From NCBI GenBank assembly GCA_043820855.1, contig JBDRDK010000039.1:1-34669 (forward strand): a DNA stretch of 34,669 nt, given 5' to 3'. Within the stretch, counting starts at the first letter, position 1, and every line of letters begins with the position of its first letter. Shown here piece by piece: positions 289 through 30,020 of the stretch. The notes under the pieces are model-generated. The model saw only the letters and a program-made list of their open reading frames with translations. It did no database searches and had not been told where the DNA came from. The DNA comes from a bacterium. Lineage in GTDB: Bacteria; Patescibacteriota; UBA1384; JBDRDK01. A program made the position numbers and the translations under genes.

Positions 289-396
289 TTAGTTATTTGG
301 TTATTGAAAAATTAAGTTATTAAGTTATTAAGTGATCGAGTGATTAAGAATTTTACTCAATAACCCAATAACTCTATAACCCGATCACTTGTTTTT
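289..396. repeat. Inverted octamer array: (TAAGTTAT-like)n followed by (ATAACYYR-like)n
   Basis: Units ttagttat/ttggttat/taagttat/taagttat/taagtgat/cgagtgat then ataaccca/ataactct/ataacccg/atcacttg. 319-396 matches the reverse complement of 2908-2985 at 74/78. Confidence 0.9.
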
Positions 397-1710: not shown

Positions 1711-1876
1711 TTAGTTATTAATTATTTCAGCCAGAGGCTTCAACCATAGACCGATAGTCCTCTGGACTAGATCGTCTCAGACAAAGCCTGACTCGCTTTG
1801 GACGAAGTTATTAGTGACTTGTGACTGGTTATTGGCTTTGTTCTACTAGTAACCAATAACTGATAACTAGTAACCA
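1711..1876. repeat. Composite element: heptamer array with nested REP-like double hairpins
   Basis: ttcagccagaggct...gatcgtc...ctttggacgaa, interrupted by related hairpin copies and flanked by (ttRgtta)/(taacYaa) heptamers. Homologous to the reverse complement of 18440-18560. Confidence 0.8.
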
Positions 1877-1879
1877 TTG

Positions 1880-2824: not shown

Positions 2825-2907
2825 CATTTTAAGCAATATTATAGGGAAGGTAAATTATACAAGGAACTATAAATAGTTTCAAGTCATCGATTTTTTTGAG
2901 ATAATAG

Positions 2908-3013
2908 AAAAACAAGTGACCGAGTTATAGAGTTATTGGGTTATTGAGTAAAATCCTTAATCACTCAATCACTTAATAACTTAATCACTACTTTTATTAA
3001 TAACTTAATAACT
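2908..3013. repeat. Inverted octamer array in the tsaD leader
   Basis: caagtgac/cgagttat/agagttat/tgggttat/tgagtaaa then atcactca/atcactta/ataactta, running up to the tsaD ATG. Inverted copy of 319-396. Confidence 0.9.
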
Positions 3014-4108
3014 ATGTATATCCTAGCAATAGAAACATCTTGTGATGAAACTAGCGCTGCAATTGTAGATCAAACAGGCAGTGTGTTGGCTGTAGAAACC
3101 ATATCGCAGATCCCTATCCACAAAAAATACGGTGGGGTCGTGCCAGAGGTTGCATCCCGCAATCACACGCTTGTGATACTGCCGACTATTCAAAAGGTAA
3201 TTAAAAAAGTGTTCAAAACAGATGACTTAAAGATCGGTTTGCATAAAATAGACGCTCTAGCTGTAACAGTGGGCCCTGGTCTTATCGGGTCACTTTTGGT
3301 TGGAGTAAACACAGTTAAAACATTGGGGTACCTAAGTGGTAAGAAAATCTTTGGTGTTAATCATCTTGAAGGCCACATATACGCAAATTGGATCAAGTCA
3401 TCAGTTACTGGTTATCAGTTATCAGTTACTGGTAAGCAAAAACTAATCACCAATCACCAATCACCAATAACTAACATTGAGTTTCCTGCTTTGGTATTGA
3501 TTGTATCTGGCGGGCACACTAGTTTGATCAAGATGCTCGACCACGGCAGATATCAAACTCTTGGACAAACCTTAGATGACGCAGCTGGAGAAGCTTTTGA
3601 TAAAGTTGCCAAACTCTTGGACCTACCCTACCCAGGCGGACCAGAGATTGAAAAACGTGCAAAACTGGGCAACCCCGAAACTTATAACTTACCCATACCA
3701 ATGGAAAAATCTCAAGACCTAAATTTTAGTTTTTCTGGACTGAAAACAGCTGTACTTTATCTTGTGAAAAAAACTAAAGATATTCAGAAAGATGATCTAT
3801 GCAAAAACTTTCAAGATGTATTAATTAAATCTCTACTGCAAAAGACATCAAAAGCTACCCGAATTCATAAGCCCAAATCAATCCTTTTGTCTGGTGGGGT
3901 AATTAATAATAAAGCTTTGAGGCAGAGCTTCAAGTCTTATTTTCAAAAACATTTCAAAGATATTAATTTGTACATGCCCGATCTATTATTTTGTACTGAT
4001 AACGCAGCTATGATCGGTGCTGCAGCTCAGTATCAATCCTTGAAATCATCAGGTAAAAACTGGTATGATATTGATGTTGATCCAAACGCCAAATTAGCAA
4101 ATGGCTAA
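3014..4108 (+). CDS. tsaD: tRNA N6-threonylcarbamoyladenosine transferase TsaD with a repeat-derived insert
   Basis: ILAIETSCDET, GGVVPEVASRNH, NHLEGH, VSGGHT, DDAAGEAFDK, FSFSGLKT, CTDNAAMI. Confidence 0.96.
   Translation: MYILAIETSCDETSAAIVDQTGSVLAVETISQIPIHKKYGGVVPEVASRNHTLVILPTIQKVIKKVFKTDDLKIGLHKIDALAVTVGPGLIGSLLVGVNTVKTLGYLSGKKIFGVNHLEGHIYANWIKSSVTGYQLSVTGKQKLITNHQSPITNIEFPALVLIVSGGHTSLIKMLDHGRYQTLGQTLDDAAGEAFDKVAKLLDLPYPGGPEIEKRAKLGNPETYNLPIPMEKSQDLNFSFSGLKTAVLYLVKKTKDIQKDDLCKNFQDVLIKSLLQKTSKATRIHKPKSILLSGGVINNKALRQSFKSYFQKHFKDINLYMPDLLFCTDNAAMIGAAAQYQSLKSSGKNWYDIDVDPNAKLANG
3394..3474. repeat. Inverted heptamer array, in frame inside tsaD
   Basis: tcagtta/ctggtta/tcagtta/tcagtta/ctggtaa ... 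aaactaa/tcaccaa x3/taactaa. Confidence 0.9.
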
Positions 4109-4220
4109 TGGCATATGGCGAATGGCACATAGCAAATAGCAAATGGCATATAGCAAATGGCGAATGGCACATAGCAAATAGCAAATGGCATATAGAAAAT
4201 AGCAAATGGCATATAGAAAA
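4095..4220 (+). repeat. Tandem heptamer array, 18 units, consensus TRGCNNA
   Basis: Exact 7-bp period (tagcaaa, tggctaa, tggcata, tggcgaa, tggcaca...) with a higher-order 42-bp duplication. Contains the tsaD stop codon. Confidence 0.95.
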
Positions 4221-4234
4221 TGGGGAGTAATGAA

Positions 4235-6379
4235 ATGAAAAAATTATTTGACAAACAATTTGATGGACCATATAAGGCCAGTGAGTTTGAGCCGGAAATT
4301 TTGAAATTTTGGGAAGAGAAAAAATACAGTCAAGCTGAGAATAATTCCAGAAAAGAAAAATTTGTAATCTCTACACCTCCACCAAATGTCACAGGCGAAT
4401 TGCATATCGGTCATATCACGCCTTTTACTTTTATTGATATATATGGCAGGAAAAACAGAATGGCAGGAAAAAATGTCCTTCTTGTACCCGGCACTGATCA
4501 CGCTGCGATCGCTGCTCAAAATGTAGTAGAAAAAGAATTGAAGAAAAAAGGTATAACCAAAGAAAAGCTTGGTCGTGAAAAATTCCAAGAAGAGATGTGG
4601 GAATTTATCAAGGAATACAGGCCTCGTATTGAAAAACAGATTAAAATGGTTGGAGTAAGTGTTGACTGGTCTCGAAATCACTTTACTATGGACCCTGACC
4701 TGACTAATGCAGTACACGAAGCATTTCAACGCTTAAAAAAAGATAAACTAATTTATCAGGACGAGTATCTAATTAATTGGTGTCCTAGATGTGGTACTGC
4801 TCTTTCTGATGATGAAGTTGAGCACAAAGAACAAACAGCAAAGCTGTATACTTTTAAATATTCAAAAGATTTTCCAATAAGTATTGCTACAACCAGGCCA
4901 GAAACTAAACTCGGGGACACAGCCGTAGCTGTAAATCCAGAAGATAAAAAATATAAGAAATATATTGGACAAACTTTTGATGTTGATTTTCTTGATGTAA
5001 AGCTGAATATCAAGATCATCGGCGACCGTGAAGTTGATCCAAAATTTGGTACAGGTGCTGTGGGCATCACACCTGCTCACTCTTTAGCTGATTGGCGTAT
5101 TGCCAAAAGTAATAACCTAAAAATCATTCCAGTTATTGGTCAAAATACTAGAATCTTGAAAGGTTTCGGAGAATTTTCTGAAATGAAAATAGGTGATGCA
5201 CGAAACAGAATCGTAGAACTACTAAAAGAGAAAAAACTTCTAGAAAAAGTTGAAGATATAAAAAACAATCTCTCAATATGCTATCGCTGCGAAGCACTTA
5301 TCGAACCCCTTCCTTCCAAACAATGGTTTATTAAAATTGCGCCTTTAGCAAAGTTAGCTCGTGATGCAGTTAAAAAGGGTGAAATCAAAATCATTCCAAA
5401 AAACTTCGAAAAAGTATATTTTAATTGGATGGATAATATTCATGATTGGTGTATTTCCAGACAGCTGTGGTGGGGACACGAACTTCCAGAAAAAGACAGT
5501 AAGGATGTGCTGGATACTTGGTTTTCATCAGCTTTATGGCCTTTTGCCACTCTTGGCTGGCCCAAAGAAACTTCTGATTATAAAAACTTTTATCCAACCA
5601 GTATGATGATTACTGGCTCGGATATTCTCTTTTTCTGGGTTGCCCGAATGATTATGTTTGGCAAGTATTTCACAGGTAAAGCTCCTTTTGAAACAGTGCT
5701 TATGCACGGCCTAATTCTAGACAAAGACGGTAAAAAGATGAGCAAATCCCGTGGCAATGTGATTAATCCAATCCCAATGATTGAACTATACGGATCAGAT
5801 GCTTTGCGTATGGCAGTAATTGTTGGCAACACGCTTGGTAACGATATAGCGCTTGGTGAGGATAAGATAAGAGCATATCGAAACTTCTCAAATAAAATAT
5901 GGAACGCAACTCGATTTGTAATTAGTAATTTAAGTGATTTTGATCCCTCGCTTACACCCGGGACAAGTCCCAAGATGGACAAAGAATCAGAAAAATACTT
6001 GGAAAATCTTAATAAAATTATTGCTGAAACTAATGAGCATTTCGCAAAAAAACGCATTGCTTTGGGTGCTGAAAAACTGTATGAGTTTTTCTGGCATTAT
6101 TTCTGTGATAAATGCATAGAAGAATTAAAACCGAAATTGAGCACAGCGAAACCCCGTACCGACGACACTAAGTTGTCTGGTGCGCGGGCCAATCAAGAAA
6201 AACTCGCTGCTCAACACACCCTATATATAATGCTCATAAATTCCTTAAAGCTTTTACACCCATATATACCTTTTGTAACTGAAGCTTGTTGGCAAAAGCT
6301 TAAAAAAAACATTAAGAATAATAACTTAGAAGAAAGTATAATGATCGCCAAATGGCCAAAGCAAATAGAAGTTAAGTGA
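4235..6379 (+). CDS. valS: Valine--tRNA ligase (compact form)
   Basis: PPPNVTGELHIGH, PGTDHA, ATTRPET, DWCISRQLWWGH, DVLDTWFSS, KMSKS. Start placed at ATG 4235 after GGGGAG rather than 4220, which lies at the end of the repeat. Confidence 0.95.
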   Translation: MKKLFDKQFDGPYKASEFEPEILKFWEEKKYSQAENNSRKEKFVISTPPPNVTGELHIGHITPFTFIDIYGRKNRMAGKNVLLVPGTDHAAIAAQNVVEKELKKKGITKEKLGREKFQEEMWEFIKEYRPRIEKQIKMVGVSVDWSRNHFTMDPDLTNAVHEAFQRLKKDKLIYQDEYLINWCPRCGTALSDDEVEHKEQTAKLYTFKYSKDFPISIATTRPETKLGDTAVAVNPEDKKYKKYIGQTFDVDFLDVKLNIKIIGDREVDPKFGTGAVGITPAHSLADWRIAKSNNLKIIPVIGQNTRILKGFGEFSEMKIGDARNRIVELLKEKKLLEKVEDIKNNLSICYRCEALIEPLPSKQWFIKIAPLAKLARDAVKKGEIKIIPKNFEKVYFNWMDNIHDWCISRQLWWGHELPEKDSKDVLDTWFSSALWPFATLGWPKETSDYKNFYPTSMMITGSDILFFWVARMIMFGKYFTGKAPFETVLMHGLILDKDGKKMSKSRGNVINPIPMIELYGSDALRMAVIVGNTLGNDIALGEDKIRAYRNFSNKIWNATRFVISNLSDFDPSLTPGTSPKMDKESEKYLENLNKIIAETNEHFAKKRIALGAEKLYEFFWHYFCDKCIEELKPKLSTAKPRTDDTKLSGARANQEKLAAQHTLYIMLINSLKLLHPYIPFVTEACWQKLKKNIKNNNLEESIMIAKWPKQIEVK
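5942..5967 (-). repeat. REP-like hairpin (family A), in frame in valS
   Basis: ccctcgcttacacccgggacaag resembles the reverse complement of 7430-7454 (cccttcgattacactcagggcagg). Confidence 0.6.
6152..6188. repeat. GC-rich hairpin, in frame in valS
   Basis: cgtacc-gacgac-actaa-gttgtc-t-ggtgcg stem-loop within AT-rich coding sequence; encodes PRTDDTKLSGAR. Confidence 0.6.
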
Positions 6380-6404
6380 ATTAGTTACTAAGTTATTAAG
6401 TGGG
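6373..6404 (+). repeat. Octamer array, left arm flanking the four-helix-bundle gene
   Basis: taagtgaa/ttagttac/taagttat/taagtggg; includes the valS TGA. Confidence 0.7.
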
Positions 6405-6408
6405 AGGG

Positions 6409-6777
6409 ATGGAAAAACGTAAAAAAATTAAAACTTTTCAGGACCTTCGAGTATGGCAAAAGTCACATAAACTTGCATTAATAATCTATAAAATAACTAC
6501 GAAACTCCCTAAACACGAACAATATATTTTAATCAATCAAATTCGAAGATCTGCAATTTCAATACCAGCAAATATAGCCGAAGGTATGGGCAGAAACACT
6601 AAAGCAGAACTCAAGAACTTTCTTTATAATGCAAGAGGTTCTTTGCAAGAAACAATATACTTTTTAATACTCATAAAAGATTTAAATTATATAGATTCAG
6701 AAGAATATGAGAAAATATCTAAGCGTTATTTAGGATCAGGGAAAGCAATAAATATATTTCTGAAATCATTAAAGTAA
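6409..6777 (+). CDS. Four helix bundle protein (23S rRNA IVP / TIGR02436-like, Avd-like fold)
   Basis: FQDLRVWQKSH, PKHEQY, QIRRSAISIPANIAEG, ARGSLQET. Start is ATG 6409 or GTG 6400. Confidence 0.92.
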   Translation: MEKRKKIKTFQDLRVWQKSHKLALIIYKITTKLPKHEQYILINQIRRSAISIPANIAEGMGRNTKAELKNFLYNARGSLQETIYFLILIKDLNYIDSEEYEKISKRYLGSGKAINIFLKSLK

Positions 6778-6778
6778 T

Positions 6779-6810
6779 ATCTCTTAATAACTAAAACACT
6801 TATTAACTAT
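6779..6810 (-). repeat. Octamer array, right (inverted) arm flanking the four-helix-bundle gene
   Basis: atctctta/ataactaa/aacactta/ttaactat; cttaataact (6783-6792) is the exact reverse complement of agttattaag (6391-6400). Confidence 0.7.
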
Positions 6811-7846
6811 GTCTACTAGTAAATATAAATATCTTATTCGAATCCTAATGTGGGTAATTAGTATTATTGGTATTTTTGTAATAATAACTGTCCTGGTGTG
6901 GTTTAGTACTGGTAGTGTTCGTAAAACTGTAAGTCAAGATTATCAGAAAGACGCAGAAAAACTTATTGAAAATCATGAATATGACGACGCTATACTAGCT
7001 TTGAATAAAGCTGGTTTTTTTGATCCTTCAAATGATCAAGCTTGGTATGAGCTCGGTAAAATACATCGTAGTTTTTATGAATATACTCTATCTAGTAAAA
7101 GCTTCCTCAGATCTTGGAAAGCAAAAGAAGATGATAAATACTTGATAGCTTATATTGAAAGCTTACTAAAAAATGATGAGAGCGATATAGCTGAAGAATT
7201 TCTTGTGAGCATTGATGAATCTGATCTCTCAAATAGTTTGTTGTGGCTTATAAAAGCAGAAGATCAAAAACTCTCAGACGCAAAAAAATATGCGAACAAA
7301 ATAAAACGAAAATCACAAAAAAATTATTTTTTGTCATTAACCAATTTACTTGAAGAAGATTATCGGAAATTTGCAGAAACTTTAAAAAATATTCAAATCC
7401 ATAAATCAAATTCGGAGACACCTGATTTTGCCTGCCCTGAGTGTAATCGAAGGGTAATCTGGAAATTATACCCGGATTCAAATACTTTATCATCTCTAAA
7501 ATCAGCAAATAATAAAATATTAAATAGCCAAATCGCAGAATCTAAATCTCTATATTCTTATCAAGCTTTTGCCGAACTTGGACTGGGATCGATTGTGATA
7601 GAACCGTTAAAGGATTTAATTGCGGACAATTTAAATTATCGAGATGCTTGCATAGTGCTGGGAGAGATTTATTATCTTGAGGAAAATTATACAACTGCTC
7701 TTGAAAAACTAAAAAGCGCTGAAAAACTGGACTACAACTATCTGCCTACACTACAACTTCTGTATAAAACCTACCTGGCCCTAGATCAAGCAGATAAAGT
7801 TGAAGATTACAATCTACGCATTGAAAAACTGCAATTTGAAAACTAG
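6809..7846 (+). CDS. Membrane-anchored TPR-repeat protein
   Basis: N-terminal TM helix; TPR-like helices (AWYELGKIH, ACIVLGEIYY...ALEKLKSAEKLD). Confidence 0.8.
   Translation: MSTSKYKYLIRILMWVISIIGIFVIITVLVWFSTGSVRKTVSQDYQKDAEKLIENHEYDDAILALNKAGFFDPSNDQAWYELGKIHRSFYEYTLSSKSFLRSWKAKEDDKYLIAYIESLLKNDESDIAEEFLVSIDESDLSNSLLWLIKAEDQKLSDAKKYANKIKRKSQKNYFLSLTNLLEEDYRKFAETLKNIQIHKSNSETPDFACPECNRRVIWKLYPDSNTLSSLKSANNKILNSQIAESKSLYSYQAFAELGLGSIVIEPLKDLIADNLNYRDACIVLGEIYYLEENYTTALEKLKSAEKLDYNYLPTLQLLYKTYLALDQADKVEDYNLRIEKLQFEN
7430..7454 (+). repeat. REP-like hairpin (family A), in frame in the TPR gene
   Basis: gcctgccctgagtgtaatcgaaggg; related to 30834-30857, 31117-31135 and 5942-5967. Confidence 0.7.
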
Positions 7847-7904: not shown

Positions 7905-7942
7905 TATTTTAACACAAAAAGAACGATCGGTCTTTACGTGTT
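7905..7942. repeat. 38-bp direct repeat, copy 1 (palindromic, with leftward extended -10)
   Basis: tattttaacacaaaaagaacgatcggtctttacgtgtt; 36/38 identical to 8533-8570. Confidence 0.92.
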
Positions 7943-7953
7943 GCGTATACCCG

Positions 7954-8490
7954 TTATTGTTTTAAGTCAAATAGCTTTTTGATTTTTTCTTCCCCCGAAA
8001 TATTCGAGCTTTCAATAAATACTAGTTCTTCCGTCACTGCTTTATCGAAAAGGTCTGCTAAATCTTCAAAATTGATTTTATACGGTATAATCCAAATGCT
8101 TTTTTGTAATTGCTTAAAACCTAAATAAAATAAATATTCTCTTAACTGTTTTCTGCTGTTTCTTTTTGTTTCTGGAATATCAAATGCGATAATTCTCCAC
8201 TTCCCATCCCATTTTGGCGACTTATATTGTAATTTTCCTGAACTAGCTTTTAATAATTCAAGTTTACCTTTAAGGGTTAGATAAAATTTATCTTTTTTTT
8301 GAATGATTAGTTCTTTTTTAATTAAATCTTTGAAGGAGCGCCTATAGCTTGATTCGAATTTAAATTTTGGCTTAACTCGATATCCTTTATAGGGATAAGT
8401 TATAATATCTTCAAAAAAATCTATTCCATCTATAAATTTATTCGTTAGTTCTTCTGCCAAATAATATAAGATCTTATTTTTACTTTTCAT
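7954..8490 (-). CDS. PaaX-like protein: wHTH plus Cas2-like/PaaX middle domain
   Basis: LIKKELI..FYLTLKG winged helix, then WDGKWRIIAFDIPE..R..LR..L..LGF.QLQKSIWI. Confidence 0.85.
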   Translation of the reverse strand: MKSKNKILYYLAEELTNKFIDGIDFFEDIITYPYKGYRVKPKFKFESSYRRSFKDLIKKELIIQKKDKFYLTLKGKLELLKASSGKLQYKSPKWDGKWRIIAFDIPETKRNSRKQLREYLFYLGFKQLQKSIWIIPYKINFEDLADLFDKAVTEELVFIESSNISGEEKIKKLFDLKQ

Positions 8491-8533: not shown

Positions 8534-8570
8534 ATTCTAACACAAAAAGAACGATCGGTCTATACGTGTT
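8533..8570. repeat. 38-bp direct repeat, copy 2; overlaps the putative PaaX-like promoter
   Basis: tattctaacacaaaaagaacgatcggtctatacgtgtt; the minus strand gives TGtTAGAAT at 8534-8542. Confidence 0.92.
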
Positions 8571-13640: not shown

Positions 13641-13710
13641 GAGTTATTGGTTATTAGTAACTAGTTATTAGAAACAAAATACGAGTTCAAGTGGCCAAGT
13701 TATTGAGTAC
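13641..13710. repeat. Degenerate heptamer array
   Basis: gagttat/tggttat/tagtaac/tagttat/tagaaac, followed by caagttat/tgagtaca. Confidence 0.7.
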
Positions 13711-18433: not shown

Positions 18434-18439
18434 AAAGGA

Positions 18440-18560
18440 GTGATTGGTAACTGGTGGTTAGTTACTGGTTATTGGTTACTAGACTAATAACTTCGTCCAA
18501 AGGACGATCAGCCTCTGGCTGAAATCATTAATAACCAATAACCGACAACTAATCATTAAT
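18440..18560. repeat. Inverted heptamer array carrying one REP-like double hairpin
   Basis: ttggtaa/ctggtgg/ttagtta/ctggtta/ttggtta ... tcgtccaaaggacga-tcagcctctggctga ... taaccaa/taaccga/caactaa. Confidence 0.85.
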
Positions 18561-18562
18561 TT

Positions 18563-23200: not shown

Positions 23201-24815
23201 TTACTCAGGGTTTCCAGAAGAAGACTTTGATAATATTGTCCGTGAGTTCTATGAAACCAACACGGTTACCACTGAAAGCTTACGCAACTTAACGTCTAAG
23301 GTTGGTTTTAGATTATTAAAAGAAGCTTGCCAAGCTCAAGGAGTAGACTGCGCAACAGATGCAAATTTATTTGCCCAAAGTGTAGCTATCAACGGTATTA
23401 CTCAGGGAAATGTAAAAGAGTTTTTAAACGGCGCGTCTGTAGCTGCAATAGAAACCCTTTATAACACCGAATTTAAGGATGAGGTTGGCATTGATTTTCA
23501 ATACATCCACGACGCGGTTACAGCTAACCCAGAACTGGTAAATTCATGGATGACTAACAACAATGTCAACCCGGAAAGCGCTACCGAAGAACAGATTCGT
23601 ACTGCTGAACGCGAATCGCGCAATAAAGCCCAACGAATATTGCAATACAATATAATGGACGCTCAATTACATCGAATAGACCCGGGTATTCCACAAGGAT
23701 TTGCAGAAGTAATGCTGGAAGGAGACGAAGATAGTCGTCGATTTGTATTTGGGACTTATATTTTCGATAAAATCGAAGACGAGGTTGGCATACCTTCCGA
23801 ACTATCTAGAATATATACTACATTGCGAAGTGACTTTATATATGGCGTGGACATAACCAAAGAAAAATATTGGGATGACGTTGAAGCCGCGGCAACAGAC
23901 ATGCTTGACTCTGTGCTACGTGATAAAACTGGTATTAACTTTTCAGACGGAACAATAGATACGTTATTCAAGGGTAATGTTGGCGATGCCCTGGAATTGA
24001 ATATGAGCGTGATATCTGATTTTGTTGACGGCTATATTGGACTACCTCGAGGAACAACTCAATTGATTTATAAATCTTATCAAGTTTACGCTGAATCCCT
24101 AAAAACCTATCAAAACGTATTGGCTGGGGGTGACGCAGAAGCAATCGCTCAAGCCAAAACTGCTTATAATGCTCAAGTAGCTGCTATTGTAGTTACCTTA
24201 GTAAACTTTGCATTTGGAAAACAGTTTGCAAAATTAGATCAACAATTTGGACTACCAGCAGGTACCACCTCGTCTATTATTGGGCTGGGGATTACTTGGT
24301 TAATTACTGGAGCAATACCTATAATAGGAGTTATTGGCTTAGCTTATAATGTGTTGTTTGGGGTATATAAAGTTAAGATGTTTTCTACCCCGTGTAATTA
24401 CCAGCCTGCTGTGGAAAATCCCCCAGCTTGGATGAAAATGCGTAACCCAGATCATCCTGATGAATTAGGTATATTACCTTCTGCGTTCCCATACTGCCCA
24501 GGCGAGTGGTCGTATAAACCAAAGTTCTCGAGTGAGACATTCAAGGATACTGCAATACAATCCGCACAATACAAGGTTGCTATGCTAATAGGTGATCTGT
24601 TGTATATGAATGATAACTTGGAAGCTCTGAATGATAAAATTGCTGGGGAGAACGGGAATATGCAACCTATCCAGATCCTTACCTTGCGAGAAGAAGATCG
24701 AAATCGATATCTGTATAAGGTAATTACAGAATACGGCAAAACAGCTGGAGCTAGAGGACGAACAGGAGTAATTATCTCTGAAAAAGTTTGGGACGTAGTA
24801 CACATTGGTTACTAG
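20256..24815 (+). CDS. Giant exported protein with split M15/DD-peptidase-like Zn motifs and a repetitive helical core
   Basis: Signal peptide; SVHSSGQAVD (aa 151-160); C-terminal QPIQILT...WDVVHIGY; recurring LG(L/M/V)PxG(S/T). Confidence 0.7.
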   Translation: MNKSIKSTCILSMSLLIALLPVFIPFSQRAQVQAQNRVETVDAAPKGIDLNNRLVSAIAEAHKNQVQFLMLNMAGQKPLLKINRKDLERIKNKKIDRRILKTLNYLVTPREFGGAGYNYLKIRRIMKGYDTPISNRKISREYPKDTDPNISVHSSGQAVDIEEIDYIYSTLKESSLIKTKKKPQAPMPIKVAWQSNEGFDQSGGMETYNQSMQGLFNEYGTDILNQSLTLELADLYGTELDLNNLSLTDFESLAKATALEWFLAMADMPGLDLSGLNLSSLSWGELVREVSRGYLGDVLGIDSEGLRGNGFSEIKQNVGRAETEDRLGVPSGSLETKNGKSDEMLRHMATRRLEDDLEFARDSLKNIASETAVQKKFKDAVTLYHASRVDSALGMPPSSTPNYYTNILQSGSKSQISDALFNIGAYYASQILVNNLSEQSLVYRWITSKGSVSSQIDFNLAGNKLEIDETRLAGNVSLKSGDIENLFIKDGANAVFNRLGESTLLDGLGSAALENFDSLANVYADFNFYSNTAKDIQDQLESLKSQSGFSDIANTLAGIVSGLTVISGSEDNYDTERDIRSMSEAARELSQFEIQEGGTPSESIQELENNINSFVEGINLPFLPGLSMDDLDIPDLNIYGTNISSLGLLDAIASENPETSLQNIGIEILENNWEFSWALPSGTMKKLFNGENVSGEVETTLGNIASDYVQDEFGIDFSGEDLVNIFHGDFDSLIDVGGAMIDGALNLPIGSTAKSIHDGGDPEQIFENTGSLLISQFLGLDFPVSLEGNISQNIGAGIIETRLGFELNSLENYSNINDMISELGVDRVATIFHLDLNGANTITDTVIESSSDGIQYIGSYLKINQDSVKHFLEGGTTQDLSNDVGESSALQITADKLINHLGLDPSIKDIIQEDVIDKLITKEGWNTKDVVGSALILLAGEKLEEVTGLRAEELKDIYESSENFNETITEAGMRIVVQMFSDYSGFPEEDFDNIVREFYETNTVTTESLRNLTSKVGFRLLKEACQAQGVDCATDANLFAQSVAINGITQGNVKEFLNGASVAAIETLYNTEFKDEVGIDFQYIHDAVTANPELVNSWMTNNNVNPESATEEQIRTAERESRNKAQRILQYNIMDAQLHRIDPGIPQGFAEVMLEGDEDSRRFVFGTYIFDKIEDEVGIPSELSRIYTTLRSDFIYGVDITKEKYWDDVEAAATDMLDSVLRDKTGINFSDGTIDTLFKGNVGDALELNMSVISDFVDGYIGLPRGTTQLIYKSYQVYAESLKTYQNVLAGGDAEAIAQAKTAYNAQVAAIVVTLVNFAFGKQFAKLDQQFGLPAGTTSSIIGLGITWLITGAIPIIGVIGLAYNVLFGVYKVKMFSTPCNYQPAVENPPAWMKMRNPDHPDELGILPSAFPYCPGEWSYKPKFSSETFKDTAIQSAQYKVAMLIGDLLYMNDNLEALNDKIAGENGNMQPIQILTLREEDRNRYLYKVITEYGKTAGARGRTGVIISEKVWDVVHIGY

Positions 24816-24863
24816 TTATTAGTTAAAATTGAAAAGTTAAAATTTTTGAATTTTGGGTTTCAA

Positions 24864-26260: not shown

Positions 26261-27373
26261 TTATTCCTCTGTTCTAAGAGGCATGATCACATATATGTAA
26301 TCTTTATCTTTGGGGTTGATTATTCTTGCTGGTGCTAATTTTTCAGTCAGCCCCAATTCCACACTTTCTCCTGACATATTATTTAGGGCATCAATAATAA
26401 ACCTGGCGTTAAAAGCAATTTCAATGTTTTCTCCTTGTACGTCTGATTTAACCTGAATTTTACTGTCCCCGATTTGATTTGATTGCGCGAGTATTATCAG
26501 GTTATCCTTTTCTGTTTTTACACGTACGTTGTTTGCAGTATTTTGAGAAAACAGACTTGCGCCTTTAATAGCGCTTAAAAATTGCTTTTTATTTGTAAGG
26601 ACAATTGTACTTGGTGAAGCAGGTATAATCTGCTCATAACTAGGAAAGGCACCCTCTATCAACCTAGAACTAACTTCAGCGTCGTTATCAAACTTAAATA
26701 AAATTTGGTTTTCAGATATATTAATTTTTAGTTTGTCTTTGGTGTTTGAATAAGCACTTATTATCCTGTGCACTTCTTGCATTGTTTTGGCCGGCACTAT
26801 AACTTTGGGTAAGTCTAACTTACTACCTAAACGAACGGTTTGTTCAGCTAATCTATAACTATCAGTTGACACTAGTTTAAGTTTGTTTTCTGTGAAATTA
26901 AACAACACCCCGGATAATACTGGGCGGGATTCGTCAGTTGCGCAAGCGATAGTTACTTTTGGAATGGCTTCTTCTATCTGCCTAGCAGACACTTCGAAAC
27001 CTTGGTCTTCTTTTATGGTTGGGATAACCGGAAATTCACCCGACTCTATGCCTGATATCTTTGCTTGGTAGTTATCGCTTTGAATGTTTAAACTTAAGTC
27101 GTTTGTTTCTAGTTGAATGTTTGTATCTCTATTGTTGTTAACAAAATCACTTAAGATTCTTGCTGGTACGGTTATTGCGCCCTGTTTATCTATCTTTGCC
27201 CTGACCCAAACATTTATACCTACCTCCAAATTAGTCACTGATAATTTTAACCTTCCTTTGTCGGTAGATATTAACACATTACTAAGTATGGGTAGTGTTT
27301 TCGGACTAGAAATTATTCTAGAACAAAGATTCAAACCCCTGTTTAAATTTTCTTGTGTGCATGCGAGCTTCAT
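26261..27373 (-). CDS. dnaN: DNA polymerase III beta clamp
   Basis: LPILSNVL, RPVLSGV, STDSYRLAE, SRLIEGAFPSY, IAFNARF, VIMPLR. Confidence 0.97.
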   Translation of the reverse strand: MKLACTQENLNRGLNLCSRIISSPKTLPILSNVLISTDKGRLKLSVTNLEVGINVWVRAKIDKQGAITVPARILSDFVNNNRDTNIQLETNDLSLNIQSDNYQAKISGIESGEFPVIPTIKEDQGFEVSARQIEEAIPKVTIACATDESRPVLSGVLFNFTENKLKLVSTDSYRLAEQTVRLGSKLDLPKVIVPAKTMQEVHRIISAYSNTKDKLKINISENQILFKFDNDAEVSSRLIEGAFPSYEQIIPASPSTIVLTNKKQFLSAIKGASLFSQNTANNVRVKTEKDNLIILAQSNQIGDSKIQVKSDVQGENIEIAFNARFIIDALNNMSGESVELGLTEKLAPARIINPKDKDYIYVIMPLRTEE

Positions 27374-27383
27374 AAAACTCCCT

Positions 27384-27651
27384 TTTTATTATTTATATAT
27401 ATTAAAAGAATAGTAATATATTTAATAGGTGTGTTGTTTTTTGTGGATAAATTTAACATTGAACTTATATAAAATTACCTTTAATTGTGGATATCTTGTT
27501 AAAAGATTGTGGTTATTTTGGGTATAAAAGACGCGCCCAGGGGGGTAATTTATTTAATCTGGCAACAGAAGTAGAAAAATCGAAAGAGAAGATGATAATA
27601 TGTTTTTAACCACAACCTTTCCAATAACTTATCCACAGCTTTTGTGGATAA
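27384..27651. other. oriC (dnaA-dnaN part): DnaA boxes plus AT-rich unwinding element
   Basis: Perfect boxes at 27442-27450, 27629-27637 and 27643-27651; near-boxes at 27486, 27508 and 27606; AT-rich tract 27384-27427. Confidence 0.88.
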
Positions 27652-29723: not shown

Positions 29724-29953
29724 GATACATAGCGTTAAGATCAATACGACTATATCAGAAAACTTTATCGCCAGACCACGGGGTTATGCGCAAAGTATTA
29801 GGTGAAAGATTTTGTAAGTTTCAACCAACTTGTTCAGAATATACATACCAAGTAATTAATAAACACGGTTTTTTCAAAGGGAGTTTTATGGGGTTATGGC
29901 GGGTTTTAAGATGTAACCCTTGGAACGCTGGAGGAAAAGACTCAGTGAAATAA
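29717..29953 (+). CDS. yidD: Membrane protein insertion efficiency factor YidD
   Basis: YQKTLSP, CKFQPTCSEY, RVLRCNPW..GGKD. Confidence 0.93.
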   Translation: MLRYIALRSIRLYQKTLSPDHGVMRKVLGERFCKFQPTCSEYTYQVINKHGFFKGSFMGLWRVLRCNPWNAGGKDSVK

Positions 29954-29955
29954 TA

Positions 29956-30013
29956 TCGGTGATTAGTTAGGATTTTATCTACAAGTAACCAGCCACCAGC
30001 AATCAATAACTAT
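29956..30013. repeat. Degenerate inverted heptamer array
   Basis: tcggtga/ttagtta ... taaccag/ccaccag/caatcaa/taactat. Confidence 0.6.
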
Positions 30014-30020
30014 TTTTATT

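Follow-up and report, generated by a model that had tools for sequence, protein, structure and literature searches.

A four-helix-bundle gene between inverted arrays of short tandem repeats at the valS-TPR junction of a Patescibacteria genome: a candidate selfish cassette of the intervening-sequence type

Small four-helix-bundle (4HB) proteins of the 23S_rRNA_IVP family (PF05635, TIGR02436), also called S23p, are described without a known function in a 2016 paper on Coxiella (PMC4990558) and as functionally uncharacterised in another paper (PMC11270868). The question raised by the locus considered here is what such a gene is doing between two protein genes, valS and a TPR gene, framed by two arrays of short repeats that run in opposite directions. 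The locus belongs to a stretch of 34,669 nt, called the window in what follows, which is one whole contig (C39; JBDRDK010000039.1) of the genome assembly GCA_043820855.1 from a bacterium of the Patescibacteriota. The host genome, labelled G000, comprises 746 kb in 64 contigs with 35% G+C, at 94% completeness and 6% contamination; its nearest relatives in the species collection belong to the same class only, and the closest named relatives of its valS are Saccharibacteria metagenome-assembled genomes. We lean towards seeing in positions 6362-6824 a selfish cassette of the intervening-sequence (IVS) type that entered or left the junction of valS and the TPR gene in a single piece. The stop codon of valS and the TPR start codon both come from it, and arrays of the same unit families that carry no open reading frame (ORF) are dispersed in G000, where they also appear as indels with respect to a close relative.

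The family assignment of the gene, already proposed in the first-pass annotation together with its position between forward and reverse-complement arrays, is supported by scores far above the cut-offs, with 131.5 bits and E=1.7e-38 against PF05635 (cut-off 33.8) and 124.4 bits against TIGR02436 (cut-off 24). Relatives of the protein with a solved four-helix-bundle structure in the PDB are 2gsc_A (E=5.9e-15) and 2rld_A (E=9.2e-7), with five chains in each entry. The motif GxxRxxxSxxxNxxE given for the family (PMC3936711) is present in the protein as R-S-A-I-S-I-P-A-N-I-A-E, that is RxxxSxxxNxxE, with Q at the position of the leading G. An alternative GTG start of the ORF lies at 6400. Upstream, the gene is preceded by valS (NF004349, 861.8 bits; cut-off 704), and it is followed by the gene of a TPR protein. 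A tblastn search of the phage collection gave 0 matches for the 4HB protein.

The two arms of the cassette are short. Tandem Repeats Finder reports a period-8 array of 3.8 copies at 6372-6401, and the repeat search pairs 6375-6400 with 6783-6808, inverted arms of 26 nt that are 77% complementary. Both arms are interwoven with the signals of the adjoining genes: the stop codon TGA of valS (6377-6379) lies within the 5' arm, which also holds a Shine-Dalgarno-like run, GGGAGGG, directly 5' of the ATG of the 4HB gene, and the 3' arm ends in the ATG (6809) that is the present start of the TPR gene.

The comparison that bears most directly on the origin of this arrangement is with L122, a metagenome contig whose valS protein is 84% identical to that of the window. 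Both share the gene order Mur ligase, FemAB-like gene, tsaD, valS and TPR gene, and the whole cassette block (Table 1) is absent from L122, in which a 22-nt overlap joins valS to the TPR gene. The first-pass annotation had proposed to look for empty valS-TPR junctions in relatives, their absence being one of its two refuting outcomes; one does exist, but without arms, the gene and its arms differing as one block between the two contigs. Since the empty site is armless, the gene did not land in a pre-existing hairpin there; gene and arms were gained or lost together.

The cassette is not the only insert that separates the two contigs. Also missing from L122 are the four array-bearing segments so marked in Table 1, and at the site of the one between tsaD and valS these two genes overlap in L122. 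Two GC-rich inserts are further absent from it: a 57-nt hairpin in frame in valS (6139-6195; -22.5 kcal/mol, z=-2.9), of which no further copy was found in G000, and a 24-nt insert in the TPR gene (7430-7453). No insert of at least 6 bases unique to L122 was found in the syntenic stretch, and the composition-blind detector found no array in the 8 kb of L122. Synteny stops after the TPR gene, where the next ORFs are unrelated; indels beyond window position 7846 were accordingly dropped from the comparison. The inserts of the window bring stop codons to upstream genes and Shine-Dalgarno sequences or start codons to downstream genes. It is unlikely that losses would be so precise as to restore gene overlaps at several sites, and for this reason a gain of the cassette here rather than a loss in L122 is favoured, on parsimony only. 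Among genome contigs, the best valS relative obtained in the scan was 49% identical, too distant for a comparison of empty sites.

Is the layout peculiar to this locus? In 12 other genomes of the class, which belong to different families, nearly every homolog has an array upstream and its reverse complement downstream, with units that differ by locus. For a quantitative comparison, 39 distinct 4HB ORFs, collected with a profile built from the first matches, were set against about 1130 other ORFs of the same genomes. The controls are a crude, greedy set of longest ORFs, and start codons were score-maximised for 4HB genes and controls alike. Both flanks reached a tandem score of at least 14/24 in 18 of the 39 4HB genes vs 42 of 1132 controls (Fisher p=1e-14). 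When upstream flanks were compared with reverse-complemented downstream flanks, at least 10 common 6-mers were found in 12/39 vs 21/1130 (p=7e-11), and at least eight in 16/39 vs 62/1130 (p=4e-10), p-values that are to be read with the reserve that genomes of one phylum are not independent. Sharing of 6-mers in direct orientation was not enriched in the 4HB flanks of the class sample (p=0.999). The duplex energy of the flanks also differs between 4HB genes and controls (Mann-Whitney p=8e-7), a measure that is noisy in AT-rich DNA and in which the many alternative starts favour the controls. Co-orientation of the 4HB gene with both neighbours was found in 24/35 cases vs 592/957 controls (p=0.48).

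A second, independent sample, formed by the best PF05635 locus in each of 27 further genomes across the phylum, gave the same picture. Inverted 6-mers numbered at least five in 21, at least eight in 15 and at least 10 in 13 of the 27 loci, and both flanks were tandem in 15. Pooling the Patescibacteria samples, 31 of 66 4HB genes vs 62 of 1130 controls reach at least eight inverted 6-mers, and 47 of 66 vs 250 of 1130 reach at least five. Periodic inverted arms thus stand far above background in the flanks of homologs at the level of both class and phylum, so that the idea of the first-pass annotation also survives the other check that could have refuted it, and a gene between inverted arrays is the rule for the 4HB family in Patescibacteria. 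The family itself was detected in 151 of 301 sampled genomes of this phylum, with 0-15 matches in each of these genomes of about 1 Mb, in a tally that includes the unpublished genome G170. The cassettes at L003 (G015) and L273 (G055) are built of GTAAC/GTTAC-type units like those of the window, in the opposite orientation to the gene.

The sequence of the arms co-varies with that of the protein. Among 640 cross-genome pairs of 4HB genes, split at a normalised protein similarity of 0.35, the arms have 5.07 6-mers in common at or above this value vs 1.85 for the other pairs; as a control, flanks about 100-200 nt further out have 1.12 vs 1.16. Permutation of labels over all pairs gives p=0.026, and permutation stratified by genome pair, which removes the effects of base composition, reaches the observed excess in 0 of 5000 trials (p=0.0002). 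All nine of the best arm-sharing pairs (9/9) are without a homologous neighbour gene within 2.5 kb, so these pairs are not conserved orthologous loci. For example, ATAAAGT-type units are common to G010, G014 and G016, genomes of different bacterial families whose 4HB proteins are 59-64% identical. Units that remain similar at about 60% protein identity point to selection on their sequence, since unconstrained non-coding DNA would be randomised at such distances, and a constraint on the stem would not be sufficient because a stem could drift by compensatory change. We infer that selection acts on the unit sequence of the arms, and we think that the 4HB protein probably recognises the repeat units of its own cassette. 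Recognition of this kind is the simplest reason for such selection, and the co-variation lends indirect weight to the first-pass suggestion that the protein may bind the arms.

The association extends to other phyla. A tblastn search of plasmids gave 34 records with 4HB matches, mostly cyanobacterial, and the inspection of 18 of these loci, partly by eye, found 11 with inverted arrays, two with direct arrays on both sides, two with one-sided arrays and three with none. Inverted arrays flank orthologous loci in Nostoc punctiforme and Nostoc C052, and again orthologous loci in Scytonema and Trichormus, besides single cases in Anabaena 90, Picosynechococcus, Leptolyngbya, N. edaphicum, Calothrix brevissima and Riemerella (Bacteroidota). 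An unannotated 4HB copy inside a plasmid-borne 23S rRNA of Azospirillum has inverted arms of GGACAGA type, seen by eye and unscored. The one-sided arrays concern the same 4HB protein on two plasmids of PCC 7120, and on plasmids of Nostoc and Calothrix there are 4HB genes with GGGAACA- and GGGTGTA-type arrays at their sides. In three cyanobacterial plasmid loci (L205, L207, L209) the 4HB gene is part of a cas operon, in the order cas6-4HB-cas4 twice and cas10-4HB-cmr3 once, in agreement with the 18 family genes in cas loci reported in PMC3936711. At L205, long AAAAGCT runs lie upstream of the 4HB gene and AAAAGCC runs downstream.

Within G000 the repeats of the arms are not confined to the cassette. 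Clusters of GT[TG]AY with at least three units spaced by 6-9 nt number 42, vs 0, 0, 2, 1 and 0 in five Markov-1 shuffles, and a looser core gives 54 clusters on 26 contigs. A composition-blind detector found 73 arrays vs 3 in shuffles, at a threshold that was relaxed from 23/28 to 20/28 after calibration on shuffles; the strict version retains only 14. The arrays fall into the families GTNAY, ATRGC and, smaller, TTTGARC, with a few others. The first-pass annotation had described the units as octamers, which is correct for the 4HB locus and for the arrays at 289-396 and 2913-3013; genome-wide, a spacing of 7 nt dominates (104 cases vs 35 with 8 and seven with any other spacing). Of the six two-arm sites without a gene that it had named, five are arrays, and the site at 29956-30013 is not supported (no array detected; fold z=-0.14). 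One of the five, placed at 3394-3474, lies in frame inside tsaD rather than between genes and folds poorly. The single arms that had been noticed near 13641 and 24805 were found again.

The ORF-less arrays were folded and compared with shuffles over the segments 2905-3015, 18436-18562, 289-396, 1740-1880, 3390-3480 and 29950-30020. The fold was clearly better than that of shuffles in the first three, moderately so in 1740-1880 and weakly so in 3390-3480, and the last segment is unstructured. Over 75 nt, the window pieces 319-393 and 2911-2985 agree at 94.7% of positions, with one on the opposite strand to the other, and the identity of two ORF-less array copies is 94.7-94.9% over 75-78 nt; copies of about 95% identity indicate copying, not only local slippage. 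Exact stretches of 19-20 nt link the 5' arm of the cassette to ORF-less arrays on contigs C14, C7 and C23, and 44 of 72 arrays in G000 have at least four 7-mers in common with the arms of one of its two 4HB genes, the second of which lies on C14 (27102-27454, in the locus 26975-27545) next to a tRNA gene, with flanks of the ATRGC family. The array in tsaD adds 23 residues (VTGYQLSVTGKQKLITNHQSPITN) at a loop that varies in a homolog of 41% identity as well, and it splits the Pfam TsaD match into two stretches, and the array between tsaD and valS supplies the tsaD stop codon and the Shine-Dalgarno sequence and start codon of valS. Often nested in or adjoining arrays, a GC-rich module of two hairpins, of CGTCCAAAGGACG and CAGCCTCTGGCTG types, occurs in the window at 1714-1805 and 18486-18530, and G000 has another 11-14 copies, spread over nine or more other contigs. 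In the window, no Rfam model matches it at the gathering threshold.

Table 1. Position of the cassette, of the repeat arrays and of related features (window coordinates unless a contig of G000 is named).
Feature	Position	Strand	Basis and remarks
Cassette block (5' arm, 4HB gene, 3' arm), 463 nt	6362..6824	+	MAFFT pairwise alignment; absent from L122
5' arm with some four units of 8 nt, GTTAY/GTGAY family	6372..6408	+	Tandem Repeats Finder, inverted repeat, sequence reading
4HB gene, PF05635 23S_rRNA_IVP / TIGR02436 family, 122 aa	6409..6777	+	Pfam, NCBIfam
3' arm, reverse-complement units (ATAAC/TTAAC)	6778..6811	+	Inverted repeat, border alignment
ORF-less 8-nt array hairpin	289..396	.	Near-identical reversed copy of 2911-2985; z=-3.4
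Composite of GC-rich module (1714-1805) and 7-nt array hairpin (1806-1876)	1714..1877	.	z=-2.55; absent from L122
ORF-less 8-nt array hairpin in the gap between FemAB-like gene and tsaD, 102 nt	2911..3012	.	-28.2 kcal/mol, z=-4.9; absent from L122
Array of 7-nt units, in frame in tsaD, 69 nt	3405..3473	+	z=-1.9; absent from L122
Unidirectional run of about 18 ATRGC heptamers in the gap from tsaD to valS, 137 nt	4098..4234	+	Tandem Repeats Finder, period 7, 18.1 copies; absent from L122
Single forward arm, four 7-nt units	13643..13668	+	Unit-spacing scan
ORF-less array hairpin of 7-nt units, its loop holding two small GC-rich hairpins	18440..18560	.	-42.9 kcal/mol, z=-5.7
Single forward arm, about three 7-nt units	24804..24825	+	Tandem Repeats Finder
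Gene of 129-aa tRNA-binding-domain protein between inverted arms	G000:C10:1883-2273	-	6-mer scan
Gene of 404-aa FtsX-like permease between inverted arms	G000:C57:5903-7118	-	6-mer scan

Among the closest known counterparts of the cassette is the IVS of rRNA genes, as in Coxiella and Leptospira, in which an ORF of the PF05635 family also lies between inverted repeats. In Coxiella, the IVS in helix 45 of the 23S rRNA holds the S23p ORF in a stem-loop with a terminal stem of 28 bp; two to three tandem GACAGAT units, whose number varies among strains, stand just upstream of the S23p start, and RNase III cleaves in vitro at the first repeat (PMC4990558). The likeness includes heptamers upstream of the ORF's start. 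The differences are that the cassette of the window stands between the protein genes valS and TPR and not in a helix of 23S or 16S rRNA, and that its arms are AT-rich 8-mers with weak pairing. Neither rRNA nor a reverse transcriptase is found here, as had been stated before: the Rfam scan of the window matched a single tRNA and no rRNA, and no RVT_1 match was obtained in the 94%-complete genome, window included. In bacteria of the candidate phyla radiation, 23S_rRNA_IVP ORFs have been reported from a scatter of insertion sites, several in number, in the 16S and the 23S (PMC11270868).

From these elements a mechanism can be proposed, which draws in part on the analogy with Coxiella. The cassette would have its cis-acting sites in the arms, whose units its own 4HB protein would read. 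For the ring of five chains in the crystals of homologs, the likely arrangement is that each subunit takes one unit of a single strand, RNA or DNA. Within a read-through transcript the arms could pair into a stem, which RNase III, whose gene is present in G000, might cut as it does in the Coxiella 23S IVS, so that the RNA of the cassette would be released and the host cistrons separated. The ORF-less arrays would then be non-coding relatives of coding cassettes, dependent on them or derived from them as non-autonomous or decayed forms, in the way REPINs relate to a RAYT. Of one RNA run and one DNA run with small shares of matching sequence, the RNA contigs gave only an exact piece of 232 nt in valS (5741-5972) and nothing usable over the cassette, which is no evidence either way.

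Several observations weigh against the reading of the locus as a selfish cassette and should be set beside those in its favour. At the locus itself, the stem is weak and not convincing alone: when the 451-nt cassette is folded, the two arms do pair in both the minimum free energy and the centroid structure, but a duplex at least as stable as theirs (-15.9 kcal/mol) was obtained with 147 of 2000 shuffled 3' arms (p~0.07) and with 126 of 2000 windows of 39 nt drawn at random from the contig, and the fold of the whole cassette is unremarkable (z=-0.32). The alignment with L122 shows no target-site duplications at any of the five insert borders, which also distinguishes these inserts from miniature inverted-repeat transposable elements, and in the outgroups L123 and L042 the FemAB-like gene, tsaD and valS are retained with no TPR gene downstream. 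In G000, the 4HB gene on C14 is in no simple bracket (forward array upstream, forward and reverse pair downstream), and two genes outside the family are also framed by inverted arms, of the GTNAY and the ATRGC family (Table 1). The TTTGARC family, with about seven arrays on C17, C21, C25, C51 and C62, is without a 4HB gene in the 94%-complete assembly of G000, and a rule of one gene for one array family fails in this genome for that reason. Sharing of units within a genome is confounded by base composition, which limits what can be read from the mean of 5.56 7-mers that ORF-less arrays have in common with the 4HB arms of their own genome vs 2.38 with foreign ones; 36 of 99 arrays are biased towards their own genome at p<=0.05, and three genomes are without the effect, so that this is a weaker result in the same direction as the co-variation of arms and protein. 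About a quarter to a third of the 4HB genes are without clear arms, three of the eight sampled genomes in which a single-protein search found no 4HB gene have arrays, and arrays flank housekeeping genes too, although the unit families then differ between the two sides. On plasmids of Pseudanabaena galeata (L205) and Gemmatirosa (L261) the arrays on both sides are direct. We know of no transposase-like activity for the 4HB fold. Besides, the authors of the Coxiella study concluded that production of S23p in vivo is improbable (PMC4990558).

These points give room to other explanations. The weak local duplex, the fact that G000 has only two or three unit families, with which a gene between two arrays has a fair chance of matching arms, and the two genes outside the family that show such arms would all suit a coincidental meeting of unrelated arrays in a contig rich in them; we consider this very improbable, given that the block is missing as a whole from L122 and that the layout recurs in the pooled samples, where at least five inverted 6-mers stand beside 47 of 66 4HB genes vs 250 of 1130 controls. 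A broader form of doubt denies any relation between protein and repeats: slippage-prone hairpins, acting as terminators or insulators at gene borders, would merely frame small 4HB genes that are often transferred. Many ordinary genes are indeed flanked by arrays, as at locus L027 of G015, where most of the ORFs with arrays on both flanks are ordinary genes, and the variation of heptamer copy number among Coxiella strains points to slippage (PMC4990558); the weak stem, and the arrays in genomes where no 4HB gene was found, go in the same direction. This explanation meets its difficulty in the flanks themselves, which are reverse-complementary around 4HB genes but of different families around ordinary genes. 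It also does not account for units common to 4HB genes of about 55-64% identity in different bacterial families and at unrelated loci, and the near-identical ORF-less copies favour copying over local slippage. We regard it as unlikely.

Where the arrays lie, at gene borders and beside stop and start codons, would also suit a host function, in which the 4HB ring, like other ring proteins known to bind RNA repeats of regular period, is a trans-acting RNA-binding regulator of termination, mRNA stability or translation and its own arrays serve for autoregulation. Such a regulator would be in keeping with the match between ORF-less array families and the arms of 4HB genes in the same genome, with the co-variation of arm units and protein, and with the presence of the family in 151 of the 301 sampled Patescibacteria genomes, which are otherwise very reduced. 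Nevertheless, arrays and cassette are missing from a close syntenic relative, a better fit to dispensable insertions, one array stands in frame inside tsaD, the number of copies per genome is as variable as stated above and related cassettes occupy non-orthologous loci; in our opinion a regulatory role of this kind is rather unlikely. As for a diversity-generating retroelement (DGR), whose protein Avd works with nucleic acid, the 4HB protein has the homologous fold and a weak similarity to the models bAvd (PF22296, 23.8 bits) and NF033474 (36.4 bits), both scores being under the cut-offs (40 and 80 bits, respectively). With these scores, and with no reverse transcriptase found in the 94%-complete genome, the identification of the gene as the Avd of a DGR is effectively refuted. 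A resemblance between PF05635 and Avd has been noted before (PMC10053308). A selfish cassette of the IVS type remains the reading towards which we lean for the locus.

The relation of this cassette to the dispersed arrays recalls the REPIN-RAYT systems, in which short hairpin-forming repeats are spread over the borders of genes, inverted copies of them flank a gene of low copy number and the repeat family is tied to the lineage of that gene (PMC3116915, PMC3337134). Dispersed inverted doublets of the repeat family that flanks the gene are likewise found in G000, a likeness of organisation only. The cassette is no member of that system, for want of a transposase domain: a RAYT is an HUH/Y1 tyrosine transposase, whereas the window gene encodes, according to Pfam, a helical bundle of 122 aa without known catalytic activity, and the 4HB system consists of tandem arrays of 7-8 nt and not of a single palindrome, with several cassettes and families per genome (up to 15 matches).

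Tandem heptamers as such are not new. They are over-represented in intergenic regions of Xanthomonas and Nostoc, and 70-75 convergent pairs with the potential to form stem-loops have been counted in Xanthomonas; the same paper noted that detailed literature on heptamer arrays was lacking as of 2015 (PMC4692102). In the text of that paper, 'S23', 'helix bundle' and 'intervening sequence' occur 0 times each, that is, with no mention of S23p or 4HB proteins. Tandem heptamers of this sort were met beside 4HB genes in the plasmid loci of Nostoc and Calothrix, and the link between array and protein gene is the element that is new here. Tandem heptamers of cyanobacteria are known as short tandemly repeated repetitive (STRR) sequences. 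Insertion in frame in protein genes, as in tsaD, has a parallel in the palindromic elements of Rickettsia, small hairpin repeats which also insert in frame in protein-coding genes; these differ in that they are not known to have an associated gene of the 4HB family or a short-period tandem structure. The idea of the first-pass annotation that the filled and the gene-less forms are coding and non-coding versions of a mobile element gains from the ORF-less arrays, which are dispersed in the genome and present or absent with respect to L122, but such an element is not wholly undescribed, given the Coxiella IVS and the heptamers of Xanthomonas and Nostoc. In the open-access literature that was searched, no paper was found that states a general link between 4HB genes and arrays, which is not proof that the link is unpublished.

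A count of arrays against genes had also been suggested at the outset. In samples of 16-40 kb from each of 21 genomes, array density correlates with the number of 4HB genes (Spearman 0.50, p=0.02; Mann-Whitney p=0.018), and with such small samples and kin that are not independent this is weak evidence that array density rises with 4HB copy number. Going beyond Patescibacteria, it could be thought that PF05635 proteins and arrays of 7-8 nt form cognate pairs across bacteria, the pairs being self-propagating cassettes and the ORF-less arrays, including cyanobacterial STRRs, the Xanthomonas pairs and ORF-less rRNA IVSs, their non-autonomous offspring; we hold this generalisation as a tentative one, possible and open to serious doubt.

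Outside the subject proper, the point at which synteny with L122 ends is occupied by a gene on the reverse strand (7954-8490) for a protein of 178 aa with a PaaX_M/Cas2-like domain, bracketed by direct repeats of about 33 nt (7910-7943 and 8538-8570) with a CGATCG core. Its paralogs on C53, C28 and C63 have long flanking repeats with a similar palindromic core.

The S23p family is widespread, being found in half of the sampled Patescibacteria genomes and commonly in cyanobacteria. If its genes and the arrays belong together, the IVSs of rRNA, the heptamer arrays and the Avd-like proteins in operons and cas loci would be parts of one system, and this orphan family would have a function. It would be a replicator like that of REPINs and RAYTs, built on a nucleic-acid-binding protein that is not an enzyme. 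Moreover, the most reduced bacterial genomes would then carry active small insertions that rewrite the borders of genes, even in frame in the essential tsaD and valS.

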